Assembly: GCA_964581425.1 (NCBI GenBank)
Contig: CAZOOM010000001.1
Coordinates: 5,183 to 69,182, forward strand
Direction of reading: 5' to 3'
Origin: an uncultured bacterium
GTDB taxonomy: Bacteria; Omnitrophota; Omnitrophia; Omnitrophales; Aquincolibacteriaceae
DNA length: 64,000 nt
Shown piece by piece: positions 19,900 through 41,279 of the stretch. Within the stretch, counting starts at the first letter, position 1. Each line of letters starts with the position of its first letter. Both the position numbers and the translations under genes were made by a program. Below the pieces are notes generated by a model, which searched no databases, had not been told where the DNA came from, and saw nothing but the letters and a program-made list of their open reading frames with translations.

Positions 19900-22800
19900 T
19901 TACTCATGTGCTCCAACCAGCTTTCTGGAAGGGGTTGATGGCTTCTCTGTTTTGACAGATGCAGCTTCAGGAACTTTCTTAAGCGGACTTTTTGAAATAT
20001 CACGTTTCACTTTTGTGATCTTTAAATTTCCGCGAGGTTTATCCAAGTCACTCGGAAGGACGAGCTGATTTCGGATTAACGTTGCGCCTGCAACCCCTTC
20101 AAAAGCCTGTCGCAGCATCCAGCCAGCGGCGCCGGTGTAACCATTCCAAATCATGCGGCCAAGTTCAAATGTAGTAAGAAAGTCAGCCGGCTGTTTGTTC
20201 GGTTGTCCGCCGTAAATTTCAATTTCCTGAGGTGTGACGTGAGCAATCGGAGAAACTTTTTGCCAGAGCCGATAAGCGGTTGCTCGGTACTCTTCAGCTT
20301 TTGCGTGATCCTTGCGCGCTTCAAATTCTTCAGCGAGTAATCTTGCGGCACGCACGAGCCACTGAACACCGTGACAGTACATTCCATTTTCACGGACACC
20401 TTCAGGATATTTGCTGCTCCGTCCGAGATAGGGTTTGCTGTCTTCGCGAAGCGCGGGCCATCCGAGAAGGATACAACTGCCGCGTTCGAGAACTTGAAGT
20501 GCGGTATTGAACACCGTAACCGCGCGTTCGAAATTCATGCCGGCCATGACAGCCCATGCCGCGGTCAAGGCATCGATTTCCCAAATGCCGCTGTCTTTGA
20601 CACCGATTTCCGTACCATCATCATGAAAGGCACGAAGATAGCGGTCGCCACGCCAAGTGGTTTCCAGACACTCTTTAAGTGCTTCCAGTTTTTGAACATA
20701 AAATGCTTTTTTCTGTGCGCCTTCTTTACGTTCAATAATAGGAACCATTTCTTTTAGGATGTAATAGAGGAAAAATCCGAGCCACACACTTTCACCGTGA
20801 CCTTCGCCTCCGATTTCATCGAGTCCGTCATTCCAGTCTCCGGTCCCCATTAACGGAAGACCGTGTTTGCCGGTGCGTTTTTTGATCACAAGATCAATCG
20901 AACGCATGCAATGTTTGTAAAGCGTATCACCGCGCGTGGTCCGATGATAAAGATGCCCCCAGCCGCCTTTATTTTTCGGAAGCTGAGCAAACGGAAACTC
21001 CGACATGACGTAAGATGCCATCTCATCCAGAATCGTGTCATCACCCGTCATGCGAATATATTCCACAGCAGCCCAAGCGAGCCAGAGCGGATTATCCGAA
21101 GCGTGTGAGCGGCAAGAAAATGCCGTGCGTCCGTCCACGAGCGTGAAGAACCAGTGAAACACATCGCCTTCTAAGAACTGCTGAGAGGCATGCAGAAGGA
21201 TTTGCTTCCGTGCCAATGCTGGATCCATCCAAATCAGATTGATCGTGTCCTGCAACTGATCGCGGAAACCGTAAGCGCCGCTGGTTTGATAAAAACCTTT
21301 GCGTGCCCAGATGCGTTCGGCGAGTGCCTGATATTTGAGCCAGTTTTGATAGCGGTCAAACTCAGGTTGATTGGTTTCCACTTTGGCGGATTCCATAAGC
21401 GCGAGCCACCACTGGCGCGTGCTCTCAAGACTCTTTTTCGCATTTTCCAGATTTTTATATTTTTGAACAATGCGGGCAGCATCTTTTTCAGAATCCGTTT
21501 GACCAAGTACCACAGCCAATGTGAATTCCTGATGCGACGGAATTTCAACCGAACCAAGGAAAGCAGCAATTTGTCCGGGATCCTTCGATTCTTTTTCATC
21601 CGGATGTCCCATTTCAACTAAGTAAGGGTGCGAGGGTCCGCGTCCGTCTCCAAAAAATCGTCCGCGTTTAGTTTCGACGAGTTCCGGATTCACAGACATT
21701 GAGGCAAAGGCCCAGCCATTTCTAAAAATATTTCTCGGGTTTGAGAAATAAAGTGCGTTCAAAGCCTTGTCATGTTTCGTGACAAGCGGGCCTGAACGTT
21801 CCGGCTGAAAGGAAAGAACCATCTGAAAATAAGGAGCCACACGAAGCCTGCGTGTTTGGTTTCCTGTATTTTTGATGCGCAAAAGGTAAATGCCAGTAGG
21901 TTCATCAGTAGGAACAAAAACCGTAAGCTCTGTGGACAAGGTTCCTTTAGACATGCGGAACACTGCTGTCCCGTCCACGCTGAAATCACAATCATGTTTG
22001 GCACTCACATCATTAATGGGGTGATACGTGGGAGAAAACCATTCCTTCTGATCTTGGTCATAAAGATAAATGGCCTCAGTAGGAATTTCTTTCGTGACCG
22101 TATCCGGCCAATCTGGCGTGAGACGATTTTGCTGTGAGTTTCCGTTACACGAAGTGTGAAGTCCGCGATTCGTGACCATGACTGAATGCGTGGGGTTTGA
22201 CATCCCGTGGTCAAAAGGCCGAGGAGTAAACGGAGTCAGCACGCGCATGGTATTGCCTTTATCCAGAAACTCAAAATAAGGTTGCGGAGTTTTGGGATAA
22301 ACTTCTCCGTGTCCGATTAAGAGGCTGCGTTTTTTGCCAGCCGCTGGCACGGATTTAGGAGCCAGAGGTTTTAAGAATTTTTGGATCAAATCAAGGGCAA
22401 TGCCTTTGTTTTTGGAGTAACCTATGACGAGTTTCATGCTCACAGATGCTTGAGCGCCTACCGGGGCATTGACCATCAAGCTTCCAATAGGGTCAAAGGT
22501 TGGGCAAGCGGGCGTGTCCTTTGCAGGCAGAAAATCCAAAGTCTCAAGCGCTCGAGGAGTCCAGACACTTTTCCCACGTCCGATGAAATCAACTCGGCCT
22601 GTGAGGAATCCTTCCGGAGCGAGATCCGAGGCCATGAATCCCATGGACTTCGTGCTCTTTTGCCAAGAAATAATGGCATTCGCTCCGCTCACATATTCCA
22701 TTTCAGGATAAAGACGAGCGTACTGAGTATGGAATCGGTCGTGCATCCAACCGTTTAAAACCCACTCAAGATACGAAACGACTTTGAGCTGCCGCGGTTT

Positions 22801-25800
22801 TTCTGTCAAATTCTCTACCGTGATATTCCAAAGCTCAACAGGGCTGTCCTGATCAGGCAGTCGGATTTCGATCGTGGATTTGACACCGTTGTGAGTTTGG
22901 GTGAGCTTTAAACTGTCTTCAACTTTTTCAACGCTCGCATTAGGAAAATATTCACGAGGACAGTTTCCCATTATAGGCCAGGATACAATTTTCCCTTTGG
23001 CCGCATCAGTCGTGTCGACGATGAAGAGAATGCGTCCCGTGGGATCCATAAAATCGTAGGATCGGCGGCTGATGTCGCACTCTTTTCCTGTGAGTTCACT
23101 GTAAACTTCTGCATTGGCTTTTGCGGTCACTTTATACTCCCGATTTGAGAGTTCGAAGGACGCAAGGGCCTTTTTGGCTGCGCGCTCGCGTGAAGCACGA
23201 ATCAAAAATGCGAAAAAGGAGCAAACCAAAATCGCTCCTGCCATTAGGAAAAACATTTGTCCTGCAGAGAGCGATTGAAGAAAAGCGAGCAGCCCTTTTC
23301 CTCGGTTTGCATTTTGCATGGCTTCCGAAGCACTCCAAACATATTCCCATTCAGCGCCGCGCGGGATGTAAAAAGGAATCAGAAGAGGCGCCCAAGTGGT
23401 AAAGCGTTTGACCCCTTCAGGGATGTAGCGCTGAGCCGCGGCAGGTCCAATAAATCGTGACAGTTTTTCGTCCAATCGATCCATGCCGATGAAGCTCAAA
23501 TTCACAAGCGTGGCCACGCGAAGTCCCATGTGGTCCATCCAAATCAGGATGCGGAGAAAATCAAAAGCCATCATCCAAAGGAAAACCTGAAGACTCCAGT
23601 TGTGGAAATCTGTCGGAGAAGAGGTTGTGTTATGCCAGATGGCAAACAGGGTGCGGATGGCTCCGTCCTGGTTGTACCAAGTCGGCTCGGGCATGACGCG
23701 TAAAAAGGTGGCAATAATCGGTGACATCCAAAGTCCCCAACGAAGGACGTAAATCAAGTTTTCGATTAACGAAGCAAATCCCGCTTTGGAAAAGAAAAAT
23801 TTGATTGGAGTCGTATCTTTTTCAAAAATGGATTGAAGAAAAACTTTGTTGATGGCAAAGAGCCAGGCTGCGATCGACCAGTTGATGACTCCGGCAAGAG
23901 ATTCGAGGAAAATCAATTTGACTCCGCCTGAGTAATGACCCAGATCAATGCGTCCCCATTTGTTTAAGAGGGGAATGGTGTTGTAGGCGATCGGATCAAA
24001 TCCTGAGCTTGTGTAGAGCTTGAATTTTTCTACAATCACAGGCACTTGAGCGGCATCAAGGTAAAACGCGACTGCACTTCCTACGAAAATCCCAAAAATG
24101 GAATCAGTGAAATAAAGTTTCCAAGTTTGAATTTTCCCTTGATGGCGAAGGCCGTAAAAAATATCCCGAAGAAGACTGACGCCTCCGGAGGCCAGAAGTC
24201 CCATCATCAAACCGAAAACAATTCGGTCCGGCATGGCTTTGGTGAACATTCCTTGAGAAAACATCACGGCAAATCCGTAGCCTGCGATCGCTCCGCGCAA
24301 ATACAACCAGCCATTTTGATAGCTGTAAGCTGTGCGTTCAAAAAAAGGAAGGCTGCCGTCAAAGGTTTCGATAATGGTTTTCAGGAATGGGAAAATCAAA
24401 GCACCGGCCAAAATCCCAATAAAGATGGGCGAGCTTGTCATGGCGCTGTGGACAAACGATAATTTGAGTGTGATTTGAAGCGCGTAAAGAATGGCCATCA
24501 AAATCGAGCTATAGGCAAATCCTTTGCGGGCACCGGTATCGATATTTTTGAAAATATTTTCTGGAGTTGGGGCCGCATTTTTTCCAGCGTCCAAGAAAAT
24601 ACCAGTTAAAAGATAAACTTCCCCCCAAAGACCTGCGAAAGAAAGACCGGTCGCGATGACTGCGATCACAGCTTGCAACAGAATCGGCAGGGAAGCCACG
24701 CCAGCTGATGATGCGAGTCCAGCAATCATCGGAGCTGCGGTGGCACCCAGAGAAACCCCAAGCAAAATCCAGTGGGCTTTTGCGGTTTTGAGGATTCTTC
24801 CTTTGGTCAGCATTCCAAAACTGTTCGTAACGATCTCATTAAAAAGAAAAAGTACAAGAGCGCGGCCCAGAAACTCCGCCATGGCAGGCCATGCCTTGGT
24901 AAGAGTCAGAGTAAGGCCCAATCCGAGTTTTTGAAGCAGGATGGGGTTTTCGAGCAAGAGCAGCCATCCAAAAAGGAATGGGGTCAGGACAATCATAAAA
25001 GCAGGTGTCTTTTTGAGATGTTTTCCGGAAGAGCACATGCTATTAGCATTAAAAATTTGATAAATCAAAAAGGCGATGCACGCGGTCAGCTTGTTGATTT
25101 GGAAAAGCTCGCTCCATCCTGCAGGCGCTTGTAAAAGATCAAGCCGGCTTGAAGCTACTGCCAGCATTCCGGTGAGAAAAATATTTTGGAACACTTCACC
25201 GCGACTGAGATGTTTTCCCGTCAAACGGATTTTTAGAAGTTCAGCAATTAATCCTCCTGCTAAAGCGACCGCAAGAAAGGTCCAACTGAAACCAACATCT
25301 AAAATACCAGAAGTGCCGAGTGAGTAAATCCGAATCGCAAGTGCGAGAATAAAAATCGTCATGGTTCCGGTAAAAAAATCTCTGCCCGAAAAGCCTTTGG
25401 GAGATTCTTTGGGCTTTTCCGGGGTCGCGGATTTGCTGGATTTAAGAACTAAGCCAGCGAACCACGAGAAAATAAGAGCGGTCAGGAGCACAAGTCCTAA
25501 TTTAAGAAATGTGGCATGACGCTCCACAAAAGTAGTTTGATTAAAATCAAAATCAAAGAAAAAAGAACCCATTACAGGCTTGATCTCTTCGGGCTTAGCA
25601 TTCATGGGCGGAACAATCATGGGGCTTACAACAAAAACAAATTCACGAAGTTCGCCAATCTTATTCCATCGGATAAATTCGCGCAGAGAATTCCACCCTG
25701 TTTTGAGCTGCAAAATGGGAATGATTTGGGTATCCAGGCTTCCCTTGACTTCAATTTTAACGGCTGCTTGGCGGGCATTTTGGTTTTCAGGAATTTTGAC

Positions 25801-27219
25801 ACCGACTCTGACAGCATCTGCGTTTGCTGGCTTGAGTCCTTCCGGAAATGTTTTGGACCACACACCTACCACGGTTCCCTGAGGAAGATTGTAGTCAAAT
25901 TTCCAAACATCTTTTTCGAGCGTTTCATCGTAAGCCACGGCAACATTGCCTGAAGAATTACCGATATTAAAAACGCCTTTTTCTCCAGCATCAAAAAGGG
26001 TATAGGCCGGAAGCGGTCCAGAGTTTTTCACTTCAGTGGATTTGCGTTTTACAAATTCGAGTGAAAAATCAAGAGTTCCTTTGGCTTCACTACCGGTGGT
26101 TTCAGGATTTAAAATTAAACTCACTTCTTTCAAGGCTGCAATCGAAGACCAATCAATGGATTGCTGAATCGAGTTCCATCCGGATTTAAGCTGGAGGGGG
26201 ATGGTTTGAGTTCCCTGGCTGCCTTTGATTTCAAGCTGAGTGGAAATGGATTTTGCCTGAGCGTCGTCCAAAAGACGAATTCCAAGCTTCACCGTATTGA
26301 TGACTTCACCGGTTAATGTTTCAGGATAGTCTTTGGTCCAAAGTTTGACAGATCCCTTTTGAGGAAGGACATAATCAAGTTCAATGACGTCTTTTCCCAT
26401 GGCTTCATCAAAAGTAGAAGTCACAGTGCCCTTGGAAGCTTCTCCAGCATCAGCGCCATTTTCTTTGGCATCAAGATGCGAGTAGGAAGTTTTCACTTGA
26501 GCAGGTTGCGCGGCAGGCATTTCAATGTTCGGAGTTTCAATCTTGGGGGCAATTTTTTCTACAACTTCGGTTGCCTCTTTGGTAGCCGCAGGAATGACAT
26601 CGGCAACTTTGGCTTTTACGGTTTTGACGATTGGTGCGCGAAAAGAAAGATCCGAGGTGAAATCTAAAGTCCCTTTGACAGTTTCTGTGGCGCTTTTCGG
26701 ACTGATGATAAAAACAATTTGATCCAAATTTCCAATCGTTGACCAATCAATCGAAGCCTGGGCATTGGACCATCCTGATCTCACAGAAACCGGTACCGAC
26801 TGTGTATTGACAGTACCTCGGATTTCCATAGCAATCGAGATTTGAGCCGCTTGGCTTGCTTCAAGGGTTTTGATTCCAGCTTTGAGAAGGTTTACACTTT
26901 CAGGTGTGACTGCAGCGGGAAAGTTTTTTGTCCAAACGACCAAAGATGAGTTCGGGGCCAATGTGTAATCCAGTTCGAGCACATCTTTGCGCGCAGACTC
27001 ATCATAAGTTGAAGTTAGAGTCCCCTTGGCCTCTCCCTTGATCACAACGCCATTTTCTTTGGCATCGAGAAGGGAATAGGTGGCGGTTTCAGCTGCTTGC
27101 AACATTCCAAGATGTGGAATGGCAAAGAGTCCGGCAGTCAAGATAACGGCTGCCAGCATGAGCGCGGAAAAGCGCTGATGAGATGCGATCGCTTGTTTAA
27201 GACGGGTCCATGACTTCAT
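19900..27219 (-). CDS. Giant multidomain membrane protein of about 2440 aa. It has a signal/TM, three tandem ~150-aa extracytoplasmic repeats, a polytopic membrane domain of about 850 aa, and a GH94 glycoside phosphorylase module made of two N-terminal beta-sandwich-like regions plus an (alpha/alpha)6 catalytic domain. It resembles a cyclic-beta-1,2-glucan-synthase C-terminal region.
   Basis: GH94 hallmarks are present: GAYGFRDQLQD and the catalytic GDWND (about 20826-20840 on the minus strand), plus YCHGVQWL. The three repeats each carry ...LDAKENG...KGT.TST.DE...KDV.ELDY.L......WTK..P........K.GI.......A.......EI.G...TQ..P...KSGWN.....IDWS.I. The membrane region (about 22950-25500) has at least 16 predicted helices. 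The likely start is ATG 27219 with an AAGGAA RBS. The track ORF begins at 27270. The C-terminus is a Lys/Pro-rich tail. Confidence 0.85.
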   Translation of the reverse strand: MKSWTRLKQAIASHQRFSALMLAAVILTAGLFAIPHLGMLQAAETATYSLLDAKENGVVIKGEAKGTLTSTYDESARKDVLELDYTLAPNSSLVVWTKNFPAAVTPESVNLLKAGIKTLEASQAAQISIAMEIRGTVNTQSVPVSVRSGWSNAQASIDWSTIGNLDQIVFIISPKSATETVKGTLDFTSDLSFRAPIVKTVKAKVADVIPAATKEATEVVEKIAPKIETPNIEMPAAQPAQVKTSYSHLDAKENGADAGEASKGTVTSTFDEAMGKDVIELDYVLPQKGSVKLWTKDYPETLTGEVINTVKLGIRLLDDAQAKSISTQLEIKGSQGTQTIPLQLKSGWNSIQQSIDWSSIAALKEVSLILNPETTGSEAKGTLDFSLEFVKRKSTEVKNSGPLPAYTLFDAGEKGVFNIGNSSGNVAVAYDETLEKDVWKFDYNLPQGTVVGVWSKTFPEGLKPANADAVRVGVKIPENQNARQAAVKIEVKGSLDTQIIPILQLKTGWNSLREFIRWNKIGELREFVFVVSPMIVPPMNAKPEEIKPVMGSFFFDFDFNQTTFVERHATFLKLGLVLLTALIFSWFAGLVLKSSKSATPEKPKESPKGFSGRDFFTGTMTIFILALAIRIYSLGTSGILDVGFSWTFLAVALAGGLIAELLKIRLTGKHLSRGEVFQNIFLTGMLAVASSRLDLLQAPAGWSELFQINKLTACIAFLIYQIFNANSMCSSGKHLKKTPAFMIVLTPFLFGWLLLLENPILLQKLGLGLTLTLTKAWPAMAEFLGRALVLFLFNEIVTNSFGMLTKGRILKTAKAHWILLGVSLGATAAPMIAGLASSAGVASLPILLQAVIAVIATGLSFAGLWGEVYLLTGIFLDAGKNAAPTPENIFKNIDTGARKGFAYSSILMAILYALQITLKLSFVHSAMTSSPIFIGILAGALIFPFLKTIIETFDGSLPFFERTAYSYQNGWLYLRGAIAGYGFAVMFSQGMFTKAMPDRIVFGLMMGLLASGGVSLLRDIFYGLRHQGKIQTWKLYFTDSIFGIFVGSAVAFYLDAAQVPVIVEKFKLYTSSGFDPIAYNTIPLLNKWGRIDLGHYSGGVKLIFLESLAGVINWSIAAWLFAINKVFLQSIFEKDTTPIKFFFSKAGFASLIENLIYVLRWGLWMSPIIATFLRVMPEPTWYNQDGAIRTLFAIWHNTTSSPTDFHNWSLQVFLWMMAFDFLRILIWMDHMGLRVATLVNLSFIGMDRLDEKLSRFIGPAAAQRYIPEGVKRFTTWAPLLIPFYIPRGAEWEYVWSASEAMQNANRGKGLLAFLQSLSAGQMFFLMAGAILVCSFFAFLIRASRERAAKKALASFELSNREYKVTAKANAEVYSELTGKECDISRRSYDFMDPTGRILFIVDTTDAAKGKIVSWPIMGNCPREYFPNASVEKVEDSLKLTQTHNGVKSTIEIRLPDQDSPVELWNITVENLTEKPRQLKVVSYLEWVLNGWMHDRFHTQYARLYPEMEYVSGANAIISWQKSTKSMGFMASDLAPEGFLTGRVDFIGRGKSVWTPRALETLDFLPAKDTPACPTFDPIGSLMVNAPVGAQASVSMKLVIGYSKNKGIALDLIQKFLKPLAPKSVPAAGKKRSLLIGHGEVYPKTPQPYFEFLDKGNTMRVLTPFTPRPFDHGMSNPTHSVMVTNRGLHTSCNGNSQQNRLTPDWPDTVTKEIPTEAIYLYDQDQKEWFSPTYHPINDVSAKHDCDFSVDGTAVFRMSKGTLSTELTVFVPTDEPTGIYLLRIKNTGNQTRRLRVAPYFQMVLSFQPERSGPLVTKHDKALNALYFSNPRNIFRNGWAFASMSVNPELVETKRGRFFGDGRGPSHPYLVEMGHPDEKESKDPGQIAAFLGSVEIPSHQEFTLAVVLGQTDSEKDAARIVQKYKNLENAKKSLESTRQWWLALMESAKVETNQPEFDRYQNWLKYQALAERIWARKGFYQTSGAYGFRDQLQDTINLIWMDPALARKQILLHASQQFLEGDVFHWFFTLVDGRTAFSCRSHASDNPLWLAWAAVEYIRMTGDDTILDEMASYVMSEFPFAQLPKNKGGWGHLYHRTTRGDTLYKHCMRSIDLVIKKRTGKHGLPLMGTGDWNDGLDEIGGEGHGESVWLGFFLYYILKEMVPIIERKEGAQKKAFYVQKLEALKECLETTWRGDRYLRAFHDDGTEIGVKDSGIWEIDALTAAWAVMAGMNFERAVTVFNTALQVLERGSCILLGWPALREDSKPYLGRSSKYPEGVRENGMYCHGVQWLVRAARLLAEEFEARKDHAKAEEYRATAYRLWQKVSPIAHVTPQEIEIYGGQPNKQPADFLTTFELGRMIWNGYTGAAGWMLRQAFEGVAGATLIRNQLVLPSDLDKPRGNLKITKVKRDISKSPLKKVPEAASVKTEKPSTPSRKLVGAHE
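25545..27087 (-). repeat. Three tandem ~150-aa protein-domain repeats inside the giant ORF. This is the extracytoplasmic N-terminal region. A carbohydrate-binding-module role is possible.
   Basis: Protein residues about 62-215, 262-410 and 425-575 align with each other at roughly 30-40% identity. DNA identity is low, so this is an old duplication. Confidence 0.6.
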
Positions 27220-27957
27220 AGGATGGTTCCTTTTCTTCAGTGGTTTTTTAAAACTTAGCAAACAAATCAAAAAAATGATTTCAAGTCATCATGATTTTAG
27301 GAAGGTCGCAATTTGTTTTTGAAATACGCATTCGATTGCTCAAAACTTTTTGCGAGACTATTTTATTTCTTTATTAAGAGCCCGAGTTAACCAAGAACAC
27401 GAATCCCTTAATTATTTTTTTTCGATTGAACACTCGCAGATTGCCTTGGAAATTTCAGGAAGTGGATCGCTTGGGAGAGCGTTCTAACCTGATGCTTGCC
27501 AAAGGCCTAAGCAGAGTTCCCATCCTAAAAGGCCAGATGAACTTTCCTATTATATCCATGACAGGCGGATAGGTAAAAATTTTTCTTGATCTTTTTCAAC
27601 CTAATAAAAGGTCGCTCCCCATTGGGGTCTCATTCCTTATGAAAGAAGATAAAGACTTCATGAAATTGATCAAGAATGCAAACAAATGGGCTTGGATGGT
27701 CACAATCAGAATACAACTGACTAGCGGGTACCCCTTAGGTCCCTTATGGATTAGGAGCCTGATCGGTGAAGAATCTCCTTTTGGTAATCATCCCTCTCTT
27801 TTGAGGTCAGCTGATCCGGGAAAAGCCCAATTTCGATATCGTAAGAATCTCCTTTGAGGCCTGTACTCATGGGTACGGAGCCTTGTCTGAGCAAACGGTC
27901 TGCGTAGAGTTCCTTTTTAAAGAATCCCGAGTGAGTAATAAAAGGATGAGGCGAGTA

Positions 27958-28389
27958 TCATGAAAAATGCTCAACTTGAATCATGTAAGCACCATTTTCA
28001 AGTTGAGGAAGTTTTGCAGAAAAATAGCCCTCAAAATCTACCGGAGCTTCCACTTGCTGCAGATGACCTGAAAAAACAACTTTACCTGAGGGTAGTCCTT
28101 TTAAGTGAAGAAGATCTATGACTTGTCCCGAGACATGCCACTCAGCAACCTTACCTTGAGGAGAGGGAGGTTTTTTCCATTGATATCCAGGCTCACCTGT
28201 AATCGGCTCTGGAGGTTTAATTTTTTCAAGACGCTGGGGCTTTGTATTTTCAATGACTTGTATTTGATCATTTCCATCTTTATCTTCCCAGCGACCGACT
28301 TCTGTACCATTTTCTTTGACAATATAAGTGGTTGCCAAAAAAAGGGGAGAAAAAAGCAAAAGGAGCAACAAAAAACGAATGTGATCCAT
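27958..28389 (-). CDS. Small secreted hypothetical protein.
   Basis: Signal peptide MDHIRFLLLLLLFSPLFLATT. It is 143 aa and has no domain I recognise. It lies upstream of the giant GH94 gene on the same strand. Confidence 0.5.
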   Translation of the reverse strand: MDHIRFLLLLLLFSPLFLATTYIVKENGTEVGRWEDKDGNDQIQVIENTKPQRLEKIKPPEPITGEPGYQWKKPPSPQGKVAEWHVSGQVIDLLHLKGLPSGKVVFSGHLQQVEAPVDFEGYFSAKLPQLENGAYMIQVEHFS

Positions 28390-28531: not shown

Positions 28532-28906
28532 CTAGTCGCGATCGCGTCCGCGGCTAGAAAAGGATTTCTTGCGGTGTCCGCCGCCAAATCCGCCTCGGTG
28601 TTCGCGTCCAGGACGATCAAAGTGTCGTCCGCCGCCTCCACCACCATGACCAAATCCCCGATCACGCGGCCCTGAATCACGTCGGCCTTCATCAGGACGG
28701 CGATTGGGATCAAAGGGGCGAAAAGGCTTGGGAAAACGTCTTTCACCGCCGCGATGATCACGGTTATAAGAAGGGCGATCGCCTGATTGATGCATCAAGT
28801 TATCAAGCTTCTTTTCAATAAAAACCAACTGCTGCTGCATTTTCTTGAGAAGAGAGAGGACATCCGTTTCTTCTGCAGGTGCATTTTGTTCAAAATCATC
28901 GTTCAT
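28532..28906 (-). CDS. Arg/Gly-rich (RGG-like) disordered protein with an N-terminal coiled-coil segment. It may bind nucleic acid.
   Basis: N-terminus MNDDFEQNAPAEETDVLSLLKKMQQQLVFIEKKLDNL. Tail RGGERRFPKPFRPFDPNRRP...RGFGHGGGGGGRHFDRPGREHRGGFGGGHRKK. The overlapping ORF 28408..28761 in another frame is a GC-repeat shadow. Confidence 0.55.
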   Translation of the reverse strand: MNDDFEQNAPAEETDVLSLLKKMQQQLVFIEKKLDNLMHQSGDRPSYNRDHRGGERRFPKPFRPFDPNRRPDEGRRDSGPRDRGFGHGGGGGGRHFDRPGREHRGGFGGGHRKKSFSSRGRDRD

Positions 28907-29256: not shown

Positions 29257-31356
29257 TTGATTGCCTTTACATACCTCTTTAAAATAGAGTGTCTTATGCA
29301 ACAAATGCTGACATTTGCGCGAAGACGCTCCCTTTTACTCCTTCTGTGTGTTTTTTTCGTTTGGCGGATGTGTTTTTTGCTGACTTCTCAACCCTTTCAT
29401 CTCTTTATTTTCCCTCATGAAGAGCTCTATCGCGGTGCCATTGCCAGAGACCTTGTAGAAGGGCTTCGCATGCCCTTTTTTCAATATCGTGCAGACGATT
29501 ATTCAGGGGGGTCGTTGGCAATCGGATTTCTCGTCTCTTTGTTTTTTCGAGGTTTAGGCTCAAGTCTATTAATCCTTAAACTGGTTCCTTTGTTTTTCTC
29601 CATGGGTGGGCTCGTTTTTTGGTATCTCCTGCTTAGCCGTTATCAGAGCGCTAAAACAGCCGTCTATTTTTCTTTGATCTATATTTTTGCTCCACTTGCC
29701 TTTGTACGCTATAGCGTCCTTCCCTTAGGAGATCACACAGAAACCATTTTTTTTACAGGATGCAGTCTTTTTTTGTTTCTTGAAATTGTGACAGAAAGAA
29801 ATAAATCCTGGGTTTATCCTGTTCTTTTGGGATTGGTTTCAGGACTAGCTTTATGGATTGCCTACATTTATTTCCTAACCATTCTGACTTTAGTTTTATT
29901 TGGTTGGGTTTATTATCGAAGAGCGCTTTTGTCACGTAAATTTCTTCTGGTTTGGGGTTCATTTTTTATCGGATTTTCTCCTTGGCTGATGGTGAATTTC
30001 TCAAACCACTTTTCGGGCTTTCGTATCCAAGAAGAGGATATTTGGAACTGTTTTCAGTGGTCTCATTTTGTCAGCCGTATATTTGACTTTAAAACCTTTG
30101 CTGTGACGCGATTCCTGACTTCTTTCGAGATTTATCATGTAATGGAAAAAATCCCTCAGTATAAAGTGATCCTATTTTACATCATCCTCTTTCTGGCGCC
30201 GGTTACAATGGGAAGCTTTTATTTTTTAAGAAAGAATCAGAAGGTGAGCCTGTTTCGCAAATGGCGTAAGCCGAATTTGGTTGTTTTGTCTTCAATTTAT
30301 TTTTTTATTTTTTGCTTTATCACTCAATGGACAAGTTTTATCAATCTCAGATATTACATTCCCACTCATCCGTTTATTTATTTTGTCGTGGCATATTTCG
30401 TGCGTTGGATTCAAAAAGAGCATCCGCGTGTACCCCTTCTTTTTTTTAGTGTCTTGATAAGCTCCGCTCTGTATTTTCAAGGCGCTCTTTTTTCTTGGAA
30501 AGATTTCGGATACGCGCTTCGAACGCCGGGTTATTCCTACCTGAATCTTGTGGACGTTCCAGTTTGCAGTGACGCATTGAAATGTTTGGAGGTTTACCAG
30601 AATTTTCAGAATCAACTTTCGATAGAAGAAAAAGGGGAGTTCCTCCGTATTGTTTCTGACAGAATGGCGCATCAGATCTCAGAGATGGAATGGAAACAAG
30701 AACTTATTTCTGTGGAAAATAAAATCCCTAAGTTTGCGGTTCCCTCTTTGTATCTGCGTTTAGGACATCGGTTTGGAACTGCGGAGAGTTGGAATTTAGA
30801 TAAAGGGCTTGCTGAATTTGATGATTTGAAAATTCTCAATCCTCAAAAATATGAGATCCTGTTTCGAGGATTTTTAGATGGATATTCTCAGCAAGAAATG
30901 AATGAGAAGGACTTGGCCTTCTTGGAGCTTGTTCCTTCGGGGTTGCCACCTGCTTTGATCCCTGATTATTTTCGAATGCGCGGCATTCAATGGGCTCGAC
31001 TCATCGAAAAACAATCCGGTCATTTCCGGGATTTTAGAAAACAGCTTCGAATTACTTCGCAGAATATGAATCAGAAAACGCAGCCTTTTTTTCTTCAGGG
31101 GGTTGGAGTGACCTTGTATGAGAAGTGGCTCTGGAAGCATTTGAGTCTTCGAAAGATAAAAAAACTTCCCTTAAATTTAGAGTATCCTGTGCTCCAAGGA
31201 ATGGGGATGGGAGCTGTCTTGCGTCCGACACCGCTTGGCTGGGCGCTTGCCGATGCTGTTGCAGAAGAGGTAAGAGGAGAGCGTAAAAGATTTGTCTATG
31301 AAGGAAAAAGTTTGGCCGAAAAATCTGTGGCTTTAATGCTGCAACCTATTTCATAA
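29257..31356 (+). CDS. GT-C fold membrane glycosyltransferase (ArnT/PMT, GT83/GT39-like) with a C-terminal soluble domain of about 270 aa.
   Basis: First extracytoplasmic loop carries HEELYRGAIARDLV. This matches the (D/E)E..Y..I.R..L motif of ArnT/PMT (DETRYAEISREML in ArnT). About 11 TM helices follow. The C-terminal 270 aa are hydrophilic. Confidence 0.6.
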   Translation: MIAFTYLFKIECLMQQMLTFARRRSLLLLLCVFFVWRMCFLLTSQPFHLFIFPHEELYRGAIARDLVEGLRMPFFQYRADDYSGGSLAIGFLVSLFFRGLGSSLLILKLVPLFFSMGGLVFWYLLLSRYQSAKTAVYFSLIYIFAPLAFVRYSVLPLGDHTETIFFTGCSLFLFLEIVTERNKSWVYPVLLGLVSGLALWIAYIYFLTILTLVLFGWVYYRRALLSRKFLLVWGSFFIGFSPWLMVNFSNHFSGFRIQEEDIWNCFQWSHFVSRIFDFKTFAVTRFLTSFEIYHVMEKIPQYKVILFYIILFLAPVTMGSFYFLRKNQKVSLFRKWRKPNLVVLSSIYFFIFCFITQWTSFINLRYYIPTHPFIYFVVAYFVRWIQKEHPRVPLLFFSVLISSALYFQGALFSWKDFGYALRTPGYSYLNLVDVPVCSDALKCLEVYQNFQNQLSIEEKGEFLRIVSDRMAHQISEMEWKQELISVENKIPKFAVPSLYLRLGHRFGTAESWNLDKGLAEFDDLKILNPQKYEILFRGFLDGYSQQEMNEKDLAFLELVPSGLPPALIPDYFRMRGIQWARLIEKQSGHFRDFRKQLRITSQNMNQKTQPFFLQGVGVTLYEKWLWKHLSLRKIKKLPLNLEYPVLQGMGMGAVLRPTPLGWALADAVAEEVRGERKRFVYEGKSLAEKSVALMLQPIS

Positions 31357-31386
31357 GCCAGACAAGACACATCATGATCGGGGGGT

Positions 31387-32220
31387 GTGATGAGATTGAT
31401 TAAAAAATGCTTTGTTTATTTTCTTTATAATCCAGTGTTGCTTTTCCAAAAACTGATTGCCCGCATCTGCGTGCTTCTTCCCTGGATTCCTTCTAAGATT
31501 TCCATCCCGGGCATCTATTTTCAGCCTACCATAACCACCTTGCCCCGAAGTATGGAATGGGGCATGTACGAACCCACCACCAAGAGTGTTTTTAAACGGA
31601 TATTGAAATCTGGAGATAGCGTGATCGATGTGGGTGCAAATGTCGGATATTTTTCTGCCGTGGCGCTTAGCATCGTGGGCCATCAAGGGCAAGTGCATAG
31701 CTTTGAACCCGTTCCTGAGTATTTTTCTGAGCTTAAACTTTTACAGTCAAGAAATCCCAAGTCACCTTTGTTCATTCATCAAGTTGCTTTAGGGGATGAA
31801 GAGTGCAAGAAAAACATGGCAGTAGGATCTGCTGAGAATATTGGTTGGAACACTTTGGTGACGGAGCTCATGCAAAAAGATCATCTTCGAAGTTTGATCG
31901 AGGTTCCTGTCATACGATTGGACCGCTATTTACTGGAAAATAAACTTCAGCCTAAGCTGATCAAAATTGATGCTGAAGGATATGAGTTTCCGATTTTGCG
32001 GGGGCTTGGCCATTTTTTTGAAAAGACGGATTGCCGTCCTGCTATTTATTGTGAGGCTTCTGATGTTGTGGCGCAAACGCTTCATTATTCTTTACATGAC
32101 TTGGTTGATTTTATGAAGTTGTTTGGGTATCAGGCCTGCTGTCCGGTAAGTTTCAAAAAGCTTGAAAATTTAAAGAATCTGATACAAGACGAACACGTTC
32201 TTTTCTTGCCGCATAGATAA
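31387..32220 (+). CDS. FkbM-family SAM-dependent methyltransferase.
   Basis: VIDVGANVGYFS is the FkbM signature DVGANxG. Also FEPVP and a Rossmann-like fold pattern. Confidence 0.75.
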   Translation: MMRLIKKCFVYFLYNPVLLFQKLIARICVLLPWIPSKISIPGIYFQPTITTLPRSMEWGMYEPTTKSVFKRILKSGDSVIDVGANVGYFSAVALSIVGHQGQVHSFEPVPEYFSELKLLQSRNPKSPLFIHQVALGDEECKKNMAVGSAENIGWNTLVTELMQKDHLRSLIEVPVIRLDRYLLENKLQPKLIKIDAEGYEFPILRGLGHFFEKTDCRPAIYCEASDVVAQTLHYSLHDLVDFMKLFGYQACCPVSFKKLENLKNLIQDEHVLFLPHR

Positions 32221-32273
32221 GTTCATTTCATCATTTTTGACCAATCAAAACATCATGCGCTTTGAGCCTGATT

Positions 32274-33350
32274 TTAAGTGATCTGTCTTAGATACGGAAT
32301 CTTTTGGATCAAATAAATCAGAGCAAAGGAGCATAGATAAATCGAAGATGCCGTGAGAGGAATCATCCATAGAGGATGATCCAGATTCGCTTTGAGCACA
32401 ACTCCCCACCTTCCTTTTGCAAAGGCCTCCAGAATCATGGGATGGATCAAATAAATGCCAAGGCTGGCTTTTGAGAAAATGAGCACAAGATTTCGTAGAA
32501 ACGAAGGGAGCGTTTTTTCGAGCCTCGAGCCGAATCGCTTTACCAGAATAAAAAAAGAAGCGGAATAAAAAACAACATTTGGCGCCAAGTTATCGTAAAA
32601 AAGATCCTTAAAAGACCCAACTCGGAGAAAGGTAAAATAAAGCCCCCAAAAACAAACCAGCCAACTTAGGATCATCAGGAAAAAAGCATGGCGCGCCTTT
32701 GGATCTGTATTTTCATGGCGGAGAAGATGCCCGAGTACAAAATATCCAATAAGTCCTTGAATGCCGGCAACTGGGAGATTGAGGTGCAGCGGGAAATGGA
32801 AGAAGAGAAGGCTGTACTTTTCTAAAAATGGAACCAGAGAAGTAAAACAAAACCAGAGCATGAGAAAATAAATTAAGTAGGAACGAGGGGCATGGGCCAC
32901 TAAGATTCTAAAAATGGGAGTCATGAGATAAAGACCTGTCAAACTGTAAATAAACCACAGATGGTAGTGGATCTTTCCCTCAAAAATTCTTTGGAGGATT
33001 TCCTTTCCTCCAAGGTTGGGTTCCAAAAGCAGTTTCTTCCAAACCACATAAAGGATGGTCCAGGCAAGGAATGGAATAAATACGCGATCGAAACGTTTTT
33101 GAAAAAAAACACGGATCCCTTCTTTACGGCCAAGAAGGAGTGATCCGCTGACCATGATAAATGTTGCTACGCAACCTCGCGTGAAAGCATCATAAAAATT
33201 GGCAATCCACCACCAACTGTCAGGCACAGCGCCTTTTTCAGTAATGACGTCTGCGGTTACGTGCACCATGATCACACCCAGAGCGGCAGTGATGCGAAGC
33301 AAGTGAATCCAGAAAATGTTATCGTGCTTGGCTGGTTGAGTTTGATCCAT
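32274..33350 (-). CDS. Acyltransferase family 3 (OafA/NolL-like) integral membrane O-acyltransferase.
   Basis: N-terminus IFWIHLLRITAALGVIMVHV fits the R-x10-H motif region. It has about 10 TM helices and is 358 aa. Confidence 0.75.
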   Translation of the reverse strand: MDQTQPAKHDNIFWIHLLRITAALGVIMVHVTADVITEKGAVPDSWWWIANFYDAFTRGCVATFIMVSGSLLLGRKEGIRVFFQKRFDRVFIPFLAWTILYVVWKKLLLEPNLGGKEILQRIFEGKIHYHLWFIYSLTGLYLMTPIFRILVAHAPRSYLIYFLMLWFCFTSLVPFLEKYSLLFFHFPLHLNLPVAGIQGLIGYFVLGHLLRHENTDPKARHAFFLMILSWLVCFWGLYFTFLRVGSFKDLFYDNLAPNVVFYSASFFILVKRFGSRLEKTLPSFLRNLVLIFSKASLGIYLIHPMILEAFAKGRWGVVLKANLDHPLWMIPLTASSIYLCSFALIYLIQKIPYLRQIT

Positions 33351-33355
33351 GAAAA

Positions 33356-34198
33356 TTAAGAAGCCTCAATATTATTTAAAAAAACATCGACTGCTTTTGA
33401 AGCGTTAGACGGGTTGAGATGAAATCCGCCATGATTGCCTGATGCGTCTTCAATGAAAAGAGATTCTTTGCCTCCAAGTTCCTGGATTCTTTGTGAGGTT
33501 CGACGCATTCCAGGACATCCATCCCGGTCTGGGTTTGGATCATTACCTCCGCAATAATAAATCCAACGAGTTCCAGCTAAAGGCTGCTTCGAATTTTGCA
33601 CTAGCTCGCGATTAGGAGGGTAGTTTTCATTAAATCCTCCGGAATTGGCGATGATGGTTCCAAAATAGTTATTCCCGGACTGGCGATCCACACCGGCCAG
33701 GGCATAAACATTGGCTGATCCACGACTGAAACCATGAAGGAGAACTTTTCCGGGTTGAGCTCCGATTTTTCTTAAAATGGATTCAATGACCGGGTACATT
33801 TGAAGCGGGGTGTAGTAGTCTTCGATTCTTTCACCGCCGCCGAACCACCATTGAATGGCTAAAATTCCAAATCCTCGCTTCTGCGCCTCCGGATACCAGA
33901 CCGAGAATCCATCGAAAGCCCATCCGGCATGACCGTGAAGCGTGACAATGATGGGAGGTAATTTTTTTGGATCTTCGGAAGGTGGAATCCAAAGCACAGA
34001 AAAGCTTTTGCCATCTTGCGAGGGGATAATTTCGGCGCCTTTGGCTAAGGCTGAATCATAACGTTCGCGCTTTTGGGATTGAGCCATAGCCAAAAGTTCT
34101 TCAGTATTGGCTGAGACCGAATTTGGCCAACTGATCACGATAAAAAAAAGAACGCCTAATCCTTGAAGCATGTTCAGAGAGGAAGAGCGTGGTTTCAT
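33356..34198 (-). CDS. Secreted alpha/beta-hydrolase of the esterase / PHB-depolymerase-like family.
   Basis: Signal peptide MKPRSSSLNMLQGLGVLFFIVISWPNSVSA. GFSRGS gives the nucleophile elbow. It lies 5 nt downstream of the acyltransferase on the same strand. Confidence 0.65.
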   Translation of the reverse strand: MKPRSSSLNMLQGLGVLFFIVISWPNSVSANTEELLAMAQSQKRERYDSALAKGAEIIPSQDGKSFSVLWIPPSEDPKKLPPIIVTLHGHAGWAFDGFSVWYPEAQKRGFGILAIQWWFGGGERIEDYYTPLQMYPVIESILRKIGAQPGKVLLHGFSRGSANVYALAGVDRQSGNNYFGTIIANSGGFNENYPPNRELVQNSKQPLAGTRWIYYCGGNDPNPDRDGCPGMRRTSQRIQELGGKESLFIEDASGNHGGFHLNPSNASKAVDVFLNNIEAS

Positions 34199-34369: not shown

Positions 34370-36493
34370 ATGAGTCAATGTCCATCATCCAATCAAAAGA
34401 TAACAATTGAAGTGGAAAAAGAATTAGAAGAATATTCAGGTTGGATTCGCAAATTTCGAGCCGGAGAGATCGGGGATATTAAAATGCAGAAGATCCGTCT
34501 TCAGCTTGGGACCTATGCCCAGCGCCAGGACGGAGTTCAGATGCAACGCATCAAAATTCCAGGCGGCGTTCTTTCATCGGCTCAACTTTTGCAGCTTGCG
34601 CGTGCTGCAGAAAAGTACGGAAGCGGATTTATCCATTTCACAACACGTCAGGATGCTCAAATCTACTACATCAAGCTTGAAGATTGCCCCGCGCTTCTTC
34701 GGGATTTGATGTCGGTTGGCATCACGACACGCGAAGCTTGCGGAAATACGGTAAGAAATATTACTGCGTGCTACCGTTCCGGCATTGCTGCGGATGAAGT
34801 TTTTGACGTGACGCCTTATAACGAAGCGCTCTTTCGTTTTCTTCTCAGAAATAAATACAATCAAGTCATGGGACGCAAATTCAAAATTGCTTTTGAGGGA
34901 TGCGTTCAAGATCACTCAGGCATGCGCTTTCATGATATTGGCTGGAAAGCGGTGATTCAAAATGGAAAGCGCGGATTCCGGGTTTATCTTGGAGGCGGAC
35001 TTGGAGCCGTTCCGATTTTAGGAGAACTGTACACGGAATTTTTGCCTGAGGAAAAAATGCTGGAATTAGCAGCAGCGCTGGTACGGCTCTTTGATCGTTA
35101 CGGAGAACGTAAAAACCGGATGCAGGCGCGCATGAAATTTTTGATCAAGAAACTCGGATGGGAGGATTTTAAATCCAAACTGGATCAAGAACGTAAAGCA
35201 ATCAAGCTTCCTGCTTCAGCTAATGATTTTCTAGGGACGGTTCTCCAACAGAGAACCGTCGCTGACAGACCATTTCAAGCGGTTTCATCATCGATTGAAA
35301 AAAATATGGATTTTGTGCGTTGGACAGAAAGTCATTTGGTTGCTCATCGAGTTTCTGGTTTTCATGGCGTGATTGTCCGGCTCAAATTGGGAGATCTGAC
35401 CACGCCGCAAGCTGAAGCGCTAGCGAAGGTTGCAGATGATTTTTCGCAGGGAGAACTGCGCGTGACCATGGACCAAAATTTATTTCTTCCCTGGGTGCCT
35501 CAGAAGGCACTATTTGCGCTTTATCAAGCCCTTTCCAAAATCAATCTTGCGGATTCTGGAGGAGAAACTTTGGAAGATACAACGACTTGTCCTGGTGCAG
35601 ACACCTGCCGTCTTGGGATTACTTCTGCAAAAGGTCTTGGATCAAGCATCAGCGCTTCCTTTCGAGCGCAATTAGAAAGTCATCGCGCATTGACTAAAGA
35701 TCTGCGCGTTAAAATATCAGGATGTCCCAATGGCTGTGCGCAGCATGCGGTCGCTAGTATTGGATTTCAAGGAGCGGCGCTGAGTCAGGAAGGGAAAACC
35801 GTTCCTGCTCACGAAGTTTATGTCGGCGGTGACATTTGCTTGGATCAGACGCGTGTAGGTGAACGCGTGGGAAAATTTCCGGCACGAAACGGCCCTCAAA
35901 TCGTGGAAACATTAGTGGCGCTTTTTGCTAAGGAGAAAAATAAAGACGAATCTTTTGCCGCTTGTATGGTTCGTCTTGGAAAAGATCGAATCAAAAATGT
36001 GCTAGAACCACTTGCGAAAGTCCCTTCTTTTCAGGACGATCCAAGTTTTTATCAGGATTGGGGACACGACAACGAGAAATTTGCCATCCGTGCCGGCATC
36101 AAAGGAGAGTGCGCAGGTTCTCCGATTCAAGAAAAGGTTCCCACCTTTCACGAGGCTCGCGAGAAGTTTTCGCAAGCTGCTGCTTTGTTGGCACACGAAG
36201 AATGGGAGAATGCTCATATTCAAATTTATGAAGCCATAGCTGCAAGCGCACGCGTTCCTCTCTATGCTTTGATGGTAGATCCGTTTACGTCTGAACAAGT
36301 GATATGGGAATTTGAAAATATTTTTGTCCGAAGCGGAAAGACCTCTGCTGAGTGGGATCAATTTTCTGAAAAAGTAGAAGCCGAAAAAATCAAACCTGCG
36401 TCTGAAAAATCCGCACAAGTATTTTTAGAGTGGGCTAAAAAATTTCATTCTGTTTGCGAGCAGCTTGCAGAAAAACCTGCGCCAGCAGCGTAG
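34370..36493 (+). CDS. Ferredoxin-type sulfite/nitrite reductase hemoprotein (siroheme-[4Fe-4S], NirA/Sir family) with a C-terminal extension of about 150 aa.
   Basis: Siroheme/FeS Cys clusters TTCPGADTCRLG (C-x5-C) and SGCPNGCAQH (C-x3-C). The N-terminal half is duplicated with a degenerate site, ACGNTVRNITAC. Confidence 0.8.
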   Translation: MSQCPSSNQKITIEVEKELEEYSGWIRKFRAGEIGDIKMQKIRLQLGTYAQRQDGVQMQRIKIPGGVLSSAQLLQLARAAEKYGSGFIHFTTRQDAQIYYIKLEDCPALLRDLMSVGITTREACGNTVRNITACYRSGIAADEVFDVTPYNEALFRFLLRNKYNQVMGRKFKIAFEGCVQDHSGMRFHDIGWKAVIQNGKRGFRVYLGGGLGAVPILGELYTEFLPEEKMLELAAALVRLFDRYGERKNRMQARMKFLIKKLGWEDFKSKLDQERKAIKLPASANDFLGTVLQQRTVADRPFQAVSSSIEKNMDFVRWTESHLVAHRVSGFHGVIVRLKLGDLTTPQAEALAKVADDFSQGELRVTMDQNLFLPWVPQKALFALYQALSKINLADSGGETLEDTTTCPGADTCRLGITSAKGLGSSISASFRAQLESHRALTKDLRVKISGCPNGCAQHAVASIGFQGAALSQEGKTVPAHEVYVGGDICLDQTRVGERVGKFPARNGPQIVETLVALFAKEKNKDESFAACMVRLGKDRIKNVLEPLAKVPSFQDDPSFYQDWGHDNEKFAIRAGIKGECAGSPIQEKVPTFHEAREKFSQAAALLAHEEWENAHIQIYEAIAASARVPLYALMVDPFTSEQVIWEFENIFVRSGKTSAEWDQFSEKVEAEKIKPASEKSAQVFLEWAKKFHSVCEQLAEKPAPAA

Positions 36494-41239: not shown

Positions 41240-41279
41240 GATGAAAATCCTTTTTTAACGTTAGGGGAAAGAGTCATCG

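Follow-up and report, generated by a model that had tools for sequence, protein, structure and literature searches.

A very divergent GT-C glycosyltransferase and three glycan-tailoring enzymes in two convergent gene pairs

The window, a 64-kb stretch of bacterial DNA, contains four genes of glycan-modifying families within 5 kb. They form two convergent pairs. The forward strand carries a gene for a divergent GT-C glycosyltransferase of the PMT_2/ArnT-like type (29296..31356), followed by a gene for an FkbM-family SAM-dependent methyltransferase (31390..32220). The GT-C frame is open from a TTG codon at 29257, which would give 699 aa; in the database copy of the protein (P0001), translation begins with the ATG at 29296 and yields 686 aa. 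The FkbM gene has an alternative GTG start at 31387. Its ATG at 31390 lies 33 nt after the GT-C stop codon and is preceded by a GGGGGG Shine-Dalgarno sequence. A search for a terminator-like site between these two genes gave none, and they are probably co-transcribed. The reverse strand carries a gene for a secreted cap-less alpha/beta serine hydrolase, an esterase (33356..34198), and one for a stand-alone AT3 membrane O-acyltransferase of 358 aa (32274..33350). The esterase stop codon is only 5 nt from the AT3 start, so the esterase is the first gene of this operon. All four reading frames are found where the original prediction had placed them, and its gene identities are right, as judged by family matches, motifs and homology. 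None of them is a chance reading frame, since each has homologues or strong family matches.

The first gene of the forward pair encodes a genuine GT-C glycosyltransferase of the PMT_2/ArnT-like type, although a very divergent one. Its membrane domain (residues 1–399, 29296..30492, forward strand) is delimited by hydropathy, charge pattern and conservation. Ten hydrophobic segments stand out in a hydropathy scan. Across 20 relatives, the distribution of charges agrees with 11 TM helices and, according to the positive-inside rule, with an N terminus inside and a C terminus outside, which bears out the approximate number of helices first proposed. The first periplasmic loop (EL1) contains E42-E43-L-Y-R-G..I-A-R-D-L and Y64-R-A-D-D-Y. 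The pair E42-E43 comes directly after TM1, and the protein has thus the acidic first extracytoplasmic loop of the GT-C superfamily. The motif previously read in this loop, (D/E)E..Y..I.R..L, is present, but not in this literal form: The sequence is H41-E-E-L-Y-R-G-A-I-A-R-D-L. An hhalign comparison with E. coli ArnT (E=2.9e-4) places this sequence on P-D-E-T-R-Y-A-E-I-S-R-E-M, with EELYRG on PDETRY and a one-residue insertion. Other conserved residues on the periplasmic side are K95, G145-D-H147 and R352-Y353. Each of the residues E43, Y45, R65, K95, H147 and Y353 is retained by at least 90% of the 20 aligned relatives.

A direct match to the models of known families, proposed as a check of the GT-C identification, is not obtained: The protein has no match in Pfam (E<=10) or NCBIfam (E<=1), including PF13231 (PMT_2), PF02366 (PMT) and the ArnT models. 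The identification is rescued by the hhalign comparison with ArnT and by the relatives, 17 of the 20 matching PMT_2 (best E=1.9e-10), a link which for the window protein is transitive only. The predicted fold is confident and has the polytopic core, of 7–13 TM helices, of the GT-C(A) enzymes; it superposes on active GT-Cs over 350–380 residues. The family has about 500 representatives at E<=1e-30, and no relatives were found in viral contigs. The window contains a single copy, whose nearest relative is 34% identical.

The C-terminal domain (residues 400–686, 30493..31356, forward strand) is specific to this family. The extra hydrophilic domain of 270 aa described originally is indeed present, with 287 aa. 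It is all-alpha, with about 14 helices, and the predicted structure has a solenoid or HEAT-like look. There is no Pfam model for it, and no TPR, HEAT or MIR signature is detected; the only resemblance is a weak similarity to HEAT/ARM and Rpn2. The positive-inside rule and the analogy with other GT-C enzymes predict a periplasmic location.

The FkbM protein matches PF05050 (E=1e-21, 78.3 bits, cut-off 22.7) and TIGR01444 (E=1.2e-24, 87.3 bits, cut-off 37.7), with SAM motif I, VIDVGANVG, at residue 78. It shares both models with the RfbT-type sugar O-methyltransferases of Vibrio cholerae, but no specific orthology is seen: The match to RfbT is weak (E=7.5e-6), just under the gathering score.

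The AT3 protein belongs to the PF01757 family (E=4e-34, 118.5 bits, cut-off 31). It has R19-X10-H30, FIMVSG at 64 and R86-F-D-R89, and at least seven hydrophobic segments appear in a crude scan. PMC9558356 reviews the AT3 mechanism and defines the motifs; a typical member has R/K-X10-H in TM1, an RXXR motif within its first cytoplasmic loop and about 10 TM helices. The stand-alone enzymes Oac, WbaK, ExoZ/ExoH and OpgC/MdoC share PF01757, R-X10-H in TM1, FxxxSG and RXXR with this protein of 358 aa. A difference is that the AT3 gene of the window comes after one for an alpha/beta-hydrolase, and that the protein has no fused SGNH domain. No NCBIfam model matches it, and we have rejected an orthology with OpgC/MdoC: The identity with E. 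coli OpgC is 24% over 106 aa (pairwise E=0.037).

The esterase has an N-terminal signal-like segment ending in VSA-N and a GFSRG motif at 156–160. The only Pfam match is a sub-threshold one to Abhydrolase_6. The alpha/beta-hydrolase fold, the GxSxG nucleophile elbow and the conserved Ser, Asp and His residues are all found. Judging by its sequence, it is a Sec-exported serine esterase of the alpha/beta type without a cap. Its family is unannotated and comprises several hundred proteins.

The original prediction would lead us to expect that the four genes are conserved together, which is not the case. Homologues of the window FkbM, AT3 and esterase are found in none of 16 loci containing GT-C relatives, and homologues of the window AT3, methyltransferase and GT-C in none of 71 loci containing esterase relatives; the esterase–AT3 pair is conserved in none of these 71. 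The relatives compared are distant, with identities of no more than 34% (GT-C) and 56% (esterase), and include no close relative of the source genome, so this result is informative but not conclusive, and a functional cassette restricted to the lineage is compatible with it. GT-C relatives are found in polysaccharide clusters, with GT2, GT4 and GT9 glycosyltransferases, ABC-2 exporters, sugar-nucleotide enzymes and methyltransferases, the last often close by but of families other than FkbM. They also form tandem arrays of two to five paralogues, adjoining a PqqD/TPR/radical-SAM/ScmC cassette. Radical-SAM genes lie by GT-C relatives in five loci (L013, L014, L100, L101 and L010), which include the four closest relatives for which DNA was available. 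The first four of these loci contain a PqqD-TPR-PqqD-rSAM-rSAM cassette, with a ScmC-rSAM extension in all but L013, and a conserved ORF of 64–67 aa with a Ser/Thr/Asn/Cys-rich tail is found in all but L013 of the five. Both the cassette and the peptide ORF are absent from the window. In L014 and L100, the beginning of the GT-C gene overlaps with a gene for a GDSL/SGNH hydrolase. In three lineages independent of each other (L036/L022, L093 and L094/L095), PMT_2-type GT-C genes lie next to esterase relatives, a hint of a possible link between the two operons.

On balance, we favor the reading of this region as two convergent two-gene operons for envelope-glycan tailoring enzymes, lying side by side in this lineage and not shown to be one conserved machine. 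The neighborhood looks lineage-specific, not like a new conserved system.

We have compared the GT-C protein with several known systems. ArnT (GT83), which transfers 4-amino-4-deoxy-L-arabinose to lipid A, is 13% identical, and its C-terminal periplasmic domain is unlike the all-helical domain of about 285 aa found here. A lipid A role of the ArnT type, considered originally, finds no support: No ArnT-specific model matches, and the 64 kb lack arnABCDEF-like genes, a polyprenyl-phosphate GT2 and a flippase. In fact, no gene for a GT2 enzyme, and thus none for a polyprenyl-phosphate sugar synthase (GtrB/ArnC-like), nor any for a GtrA, SMR, MATE or ArnE/F-like protein is found in the window. The Pfam scan covered 47 ORFs: those with 150 aa or more, apart from a few that overlap larger genes, and four shorter ones near the locus. 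The genes for donor synthesis and the flippase may lie elsewhere in the genome. The three-component systems (GtrA/GtrB/Gtr*; GT136) are similar in that a GT-C enzyme is predicted to modify an exported glycan with a lipid-linked monosaccharide, but here no linked synthase or flippase is present in the 64 kb, and the accessory domain is helical, not a CBM. Accessory domains which bind the acceptor outside the cytoplasm are known from other systems: The GT136 protein ORF12 of a pentofuranose system, for instance, has a CBM (Kelly et al. 2024, PMC11127046). The similarity to the mycobacterial arabinofuranosyltransferases EmbA/B/C and AftA/B/D is limited to the fold: The accessory domains differ, the GT-C gene is present only once in the window, and an exporter is missing there.

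Following the GT-C paradigm, the enzyme would take a monosaccharide from a polyprenyl-phosphate-sugar at the outer leaflet of the inner membrane and transfer it to an already exported acceptor. The acidic EL1 loop (E42/E43 and YRADDY), together with K95, H147 and R352/Y353, would be used in this reaction, and the helical-repeat periplasmic domain may hold the acceptor. This acceptor would most likely be a glycan chain, although an exported protein or peptide rich in Ser/Thr is possible as well. The originally proposed order, glycosylation and then methylation, fits poorly with the topology: GT-C enzymes work on the periplasmic side of the membrane, but an FkbM enzyme, which depends on SAM, must act in the cytoplasm. 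Because of this requirement, FkbM would O-methylate the sugar before export, either on the lipid-linked donor or on the terminus of a nascent glycan, as in the case of RfbT, and not after the GT-C step. AT3 would use cytoplasmic acyl-CoA to acylate a hydroxyl on an extracytoplasmic sugar, and the exported esterase may remove or trim ester groups in the periplasm.

The four enzymes might instead work one after another on a single envelope glycan, for example the LPS core or lipid A, an O-antigen, or a glycan O-linked to protein: GT-C would add a sugar, methylation and acylation would follow, and the esterase would remodel the acyl group. We consider such a single cassette rather unlikely. The short distance between four genes of glycan-modifying families speaks for it, as do the esterase relatives next to PMT_2 GT-C genes, the methyltransferases near GT-C relatives and the two overlapping GDSL/SGNH hydrolase genes. 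Nevertheless, the partners are missing from all 16 GT-C and all 71 esterase loci, the genes are split over two convergent transcription units, methylation by a SAM enzyme after periplasmic transfer is implausible, and the window contains no donor machinery of the arn or Gtr type. A more specific target would be the periplasmic beta-glucan of a giant Cgs-like protein of 2456 aa, whose gene (19900..27270, reverse strand) we mention only as context, without including it in the locus. This gene is divergent from the GT-C gene and 2 kb upstream of it, with two small ORFs in between, a separation which weakens the case. The protein contains PF06165 and PF17167, about 15–18 hydrophobic segments at 593–1357 and a cytoplasmic GH94 module, which is closest to cyclic beta-1,2-glucan synthase (PDB 8rf9, Cgs; E=7e-106 over residues 1681–2409). 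Only residues 1373–1615 of its N-terminal 1680 aa match Cgs, and the GT84 part of Cgs, its glycosyltransferase, has no match in the giant protein. On this view AT3 would acylate (succinylate) the glucan in the manner of OpgC/Cgm, the substituent would be taken off again by the esterase, and GT-C would add a branch. We know of no GT-C enzyme that acts on periplasmic glucans. Stand-alone AT3s (MdoC/OpgC and a Brucella homologue) do succinylate periplasmic glucans (PMC9558356), but the similarity of the window AT3 to OpgC is only at the superfamily level and no NCBIfam model supports it. This assignment is improbable.

Another proposal concerns the acceptor: The GT-C protein could be a protein or peptide O-glycosyltransferase, similar to PMT, TMTC and TMEM260, whose C-terminal domain recognizes an exported Ser/Thr-rich polypeptide and not a polysaccharide. 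TMTC1-4 and TMEM260 are built in this way, from a GT-C core and an alpha-solenoid at the C terminus, and the radical-SAM genes and small ORFs of the relatives point in the same direction. On the other hand, PMT1/2/4 (GT39), TMTC1-4 and TMEM260 differ from this bacterial protein, whose domain has no detectable TPR, HEAT or MIR signature. The window contains neither cassette nor peptide, the same relatives sit among classical polysaccharide genes with ABC-2 exporters, and their tandem arrays resemble the Emb/Aft GT-Cs which build polymers. We regard this proposal as rather unlikely. The GT-C-like protein might also lack catalytic activity, being either a relic or, for example, a transporter or scaffold. 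In favor of this are its failure to match all curated HMMs and its presence as a single, very divergent copy. The reading frame is intact, though, the family has conserved the acidic EL1 residues and further positions which face the periplasm, and the predicted fold superposes on active enzymes, which makes a relic highly improbable. Two neighboring operons for envelope-glycan tailoring enzymes remain the reading we favor.

The catalogue of envelope-glycan genes gains a very divergent but recognizable GT-C and three ordinary tailoring enzymes. The value of the locus is mostly as a pointer to an uncharacterized GT-C family, whose periplasmic helical domain has no family assignment, to an unannotated family of secreted esterases, and to the role of partners of AT3-only enzymes. 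PMC9558356 leaves it open whether AT3-only acyltransferases depend on a partner in the periplasm. The closely spaced esterase–AT3 pair could have been an example of such a partnership, but the pairing is not conserved. A more speculative idea, which we regard as quite unlikely, is that of an undescribed GT-C family whose periplasmic alpha-solenoid recognizes an exported Ser/Thr-rich peptide or protein. Its closest relatives would be wired to a SynChlorMet-type PqqD/TPR/radical-SAM/ScmC cassette and a precursor-like peptide, the window copy would be a "solo" O-glycosyltransferase, and the esterase family would be a recurrent GT-C partner. If true, a peptide acceptor would mean a new kind of glycosylated ribosomal peptide, or bacterial protein O-glycosylation with lipid-linked donors. 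The tandem arrays of this GT-C family next to radical-SAM/PqqD cassettes occur in soil and groundwater bacteria.

The four genes at 29257-34198 form two convergent pairs, with a stop-to-stop distance of 53 nt, and all of them were found where the original prediction had placed them. Each is of a known kind, one of them being very divergent. On the + strand, the GT-C glycosyltransferase candidate extends from 29257 (TTG) or 29296 (ATG, as in its database copy, P0001) to 31356, with 686 aa from the ATG. The FkbM methyltransferase gene starts 33 nt past its stop, with a GGGGGG Shine-Dalgarno sequence ahead of the start. Its product matches PF05050 (78 bits) and TIGR01444 (87 bits) and contains a VIDVGANVG motif. 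On the - strand, an esterase gene (33356-34198), coding for a hydrolase with a signal peptide, is upstream of the AT3 acyltransferase gene (32274-33350), which follows after 5 nt. The AT3 protein (PF01757, 118 bits) contains R19-X10-H30, FIMVSG and R86-F-D-R89: such R-X10-H, FIMVSG-type and RXXR motifs are those described for the AT3 family (PMC9558356). Promoter and terminator scans gave signals no higher than the shuffled expectation, and no Rfam RNA family was found within the window.

The GT-C protein has no match in Pfam at E=10, either whole or as separate halves, and none in NCBIfam at E=1. Its family sequence profile, compared with PDB sequences, gave only noise-level matches to Rpn2 and RhoGAP. 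A word-indexed protein search detected only three relatives, with 25-30% identity, whose contigs contain additional unannotated paralogues. A profile built from these sequences led to about 20 further ones, the majority with PF13231 PMT_2. HMMER, run exhaustively over 1.84 billion cluster representatives, yielded 2,866 matches with E<=1e-3, 506 of them with E<=1e-30; many came via the C-terminal domain, and identity to the window protein is at most 34% for any relative in this set. The family profile was aligned by hhalign with E. coli ArnT over 302 columns (E=2.9e-4), which places P-H-E-E-L-Y-R-G-A-I-A-R-D-L on the ArnT loop P-D-E-T-R-Y-A-E-I-S-R-E-M. The ArnT/PMT-type loop motif originally proposed is thus essentially right, except for a one-residue insertion relative to ArnT. 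Lack of a direct HMM match had been named beforehand as one of the outcomes that would refute the proposal: the window protein has no match to a curated HMM, and the assignment is supported by the ArnT alignment and by PMT_2 matches in 17 of the 20 relatives rescanned (best E=1.9e-10).

AlphaFold2, given the 20-sequence alignment, produced a confident model (pLDDT 81, pTM 0.81). At least 90% of the aligned sequences share residues E43, Y45, R65, K95, H147 and Y353, and we therefore expect the window protein to be an active enzyme. Hydropathy and the distribution of K+R in 20 sequences fit a topology of 11 TM helices and a cytoplasmic N terminus. Basic loops are found at 208-216, 312-327 and 374-380 and uncharged ones at 141-147 and 189-190; EL1 and EL4 are acidic. 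Given this topology, residues 400-686 are predicted to be periplasmic.

The window contains a single GT-C copy, with no paralogues. In relatives, the usual arrangement is a tandem array of two to five paralogues with 25-36% mutual identity: such arrays are found in L005:39-9271, L101:1989-12049, L002, L001, L004, L007 and L009, and most of their members were missed by the first word-indexed search. The relatives come from Nitrospirae, Acidobacteria and "ANGP1" soil MAGs, and from metagenome contigs, one of these contigs being labelled groundwater. A phage origin or seroconversion role was rejected, since no relative is found among viral contigs. The neighbours of the GT-C relatives are glycosyltransferases (GT2, GT4 and GT9) and other polysaccharide genes (ABC-2 exporters, epimerases, dehydratases, NeuB, class-I methyltransferases, polysaccharide deacetylases and NTP_transf_5). 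Two members of the closest group carry a GDSL/SGNH "lipase" gene that overlaps the GT-C start (L014:1169-2215 and L100:8938-10008), which suggests translational coupling. These genes echo the hydrolase near GT-C in the window, but their fold differs from that of the window esterase.

Among relatives with DNA available, the four closest have their GT-C genes immediately upstream of a PqqD-TPR-PqqD-radical SAM-radical SAM cassette (L013:12160-16447, L014:4341-10618, L100:12027-18378 and L101:14050-20591). In the last three, a small ORF, ScmC and a third radical SAM gene come next in the cassette. Only a ScmC-radical SAM pair is found in L002:1-1174, adjoining one of the GT-C paralogues there. 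We take this PqqD/TPR/radical SAM/ScmC arrangement to be the TIGRFAM "SynChlorMet" cassette. The small ORF (64-67 aa) lies inside the cassette at L014:8440-8643, L100:16194-16355 and L101:18380-18574, and it is also found at L010:454-657, a locus with radical SAM genes among its neighbours. It is conserved, with ..YESPKL(Y/F)RVVLNHDQAILSGCST.. ahead of a Ser/Thr/Asn/Cys-rich tail. It resembles a precursor peptide, and its product is a possible glycosylation substrate. The window lacks the cassette and has no counterpart of the peptide (tblastn E>0.3). This uncharacterised GT-C family and its association with radical SAM genes are a more interesting lead than the window genes themselves, although they lie outside the window.

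The esterase belongs to a family with at least 346 homologues, with identities up to about 55%, none of which has a Pfam domain on record; the few which have been named in their sources are called "hypothetical protein". H-G-F-S158-R-G, D220, D251 and H256 are invariant. Of 80 metagenomic loci retrieved for this family, 71 yielded the esterase ORF. No homologue of the window AT3, methyltransferase or GT-C is found among the neighbours in these 71 loci. As AT3 homologues are found in 0 of 71, we reject, as a general rule, the idea (suggested by analogy with PatB/SGNH) that the esterase is an obligate periplasmic partner of AT3. In two long contigs, the gene downstream of the esterase relative codes for a secreted lipoprotein.

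In the 16 loci with GT-C relatives, tblastn with every window protein matched only GT-C. The four-gene unit is therefore not conserved, and the same holds for the esterase-AT3 pair: partner homologues are missing at the 16 GT-C loci and the 71 esterase loci, all of which are distant comparators. The original prediction of a single cassette was correct as to the gene families; co-conservation of the four genes failed, and neither the cassette nor an LPS or lipid A target is supported. There is nevertheless a weak counter-signal. PMT_2-type GT-C genes adjoin esterase relatives in three independent lineages: L036:3271-5121 and L022:4793-5464, L093:58-795, and L094:4735-5679 and L095:4735-8510. 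Polytopic proteins of 690-720 aa without Pfam match adjoin them in two more (L049:842-2902 and L074:398-2470, and L061:863-3019). An association between esterase and GT-C may thus be recurrent across lineages. The 690-aa polytopic neighbours in L074 and L095 are not members of the window GT-C family: no match is found by hhalign.

The window also has a PHB-depolymerase-like esterase gene (38871-39869, +), 4.7 kb away from the four genes, whose homologues are found beside, or fused to, esterase relatives at three metagenomic loci (L036:1958-3304, L039:5645-6943 and L022:2948-4777). The two window esterases are not paralogues, as they have no significant similarity. Two metagenomic contigs with esterase relatives (L071:6245-7521 and L090:2317-3543) have, in addition, strong homologues of the window genes 18634-19812, 47116-47643 and 45222-46433, none of which adjoins the esterase in the window. 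They may correspond to related organisms with rearranged gene order, in which the esterase has no adjoining AT3.

In our reading, the region comprises a convergent pair of operons for enzymes that tailor glycans. GT-C would move a sugar from a lipid-phosphate donor, according to the paradigm summarised in PMC11127046, to an acceptor that has been exported and is bound by the helical domain of the enzyme. Pfam scans of the window ORFs detected no polyprenyl-phosphate sugar synthase or flippase. FkbM must act on the cytoplasmic side, because it needs SAM, and could methylate the donor sugar or the terminus of the nascent glycan; the order first suggested, glycosylation and then methylation, would be reversed. 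AT3 would take the acyl group from acyl-CoA across the membrane, as described for this family (PMC9558356), and the periplasmic role of the esterase would be to remove esters or edit them. We favour a glycan chain as the GT-C acceptor, because the relatives have a polysaccharide context and paralogue arrays. A protein or peptide acceptor is a serious alternative, in line with the solenoid domain of GT-C and the radical-SAM/peptide cassette beside its relatives.

A neighbouring gene codes for a giant GH94 protein (19900-27270, -, 2456 aa). Starting at the N terminus, a single TM helix is followed by three periplasmic repeats (about 180 aa each), a stretch with some 15-18 hydrophobic segments (residues 593-1357) and a cytoplasmic, Cgs-like GH94 module. 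A link with the four genes is possible but weak. The GH94 module is nearest to that of cyclic beta-1,2-glucan synthase (8rf9, E=7e-106), but the rest of the protein does not match the GT84 glycosyltransferase part of the synthase, and AT3 is not OpgC-like, so it was rejected as an OpgC orthologue. As NCBIfam gave no match either, the architecture is unusual for a GH94 enzyme. The 2-kb gap between this gene and GT-C contains two ORFs, 28532-28906 (-) and 27958-28389 (-), without Pfam or NCBIfam matches. One (124 aa) carries an Arg/Gly-rich tail (..GFGHGGGGGGRHFDRPGREHRGGFGGGHRKK..), and the second (143 aa) a signal peptide. On the other side, the four genes are flanked by a gene for a 707-aa NirA/sulfite-reductase-like protein (34370-36493, +), with an NrfA/NrfH-type cytochrome c nitrite reductase pair (39875-41750, -) a few kb beyond. 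These genes suggest an anaerobic or microaerobic nitrite-reducing organism.
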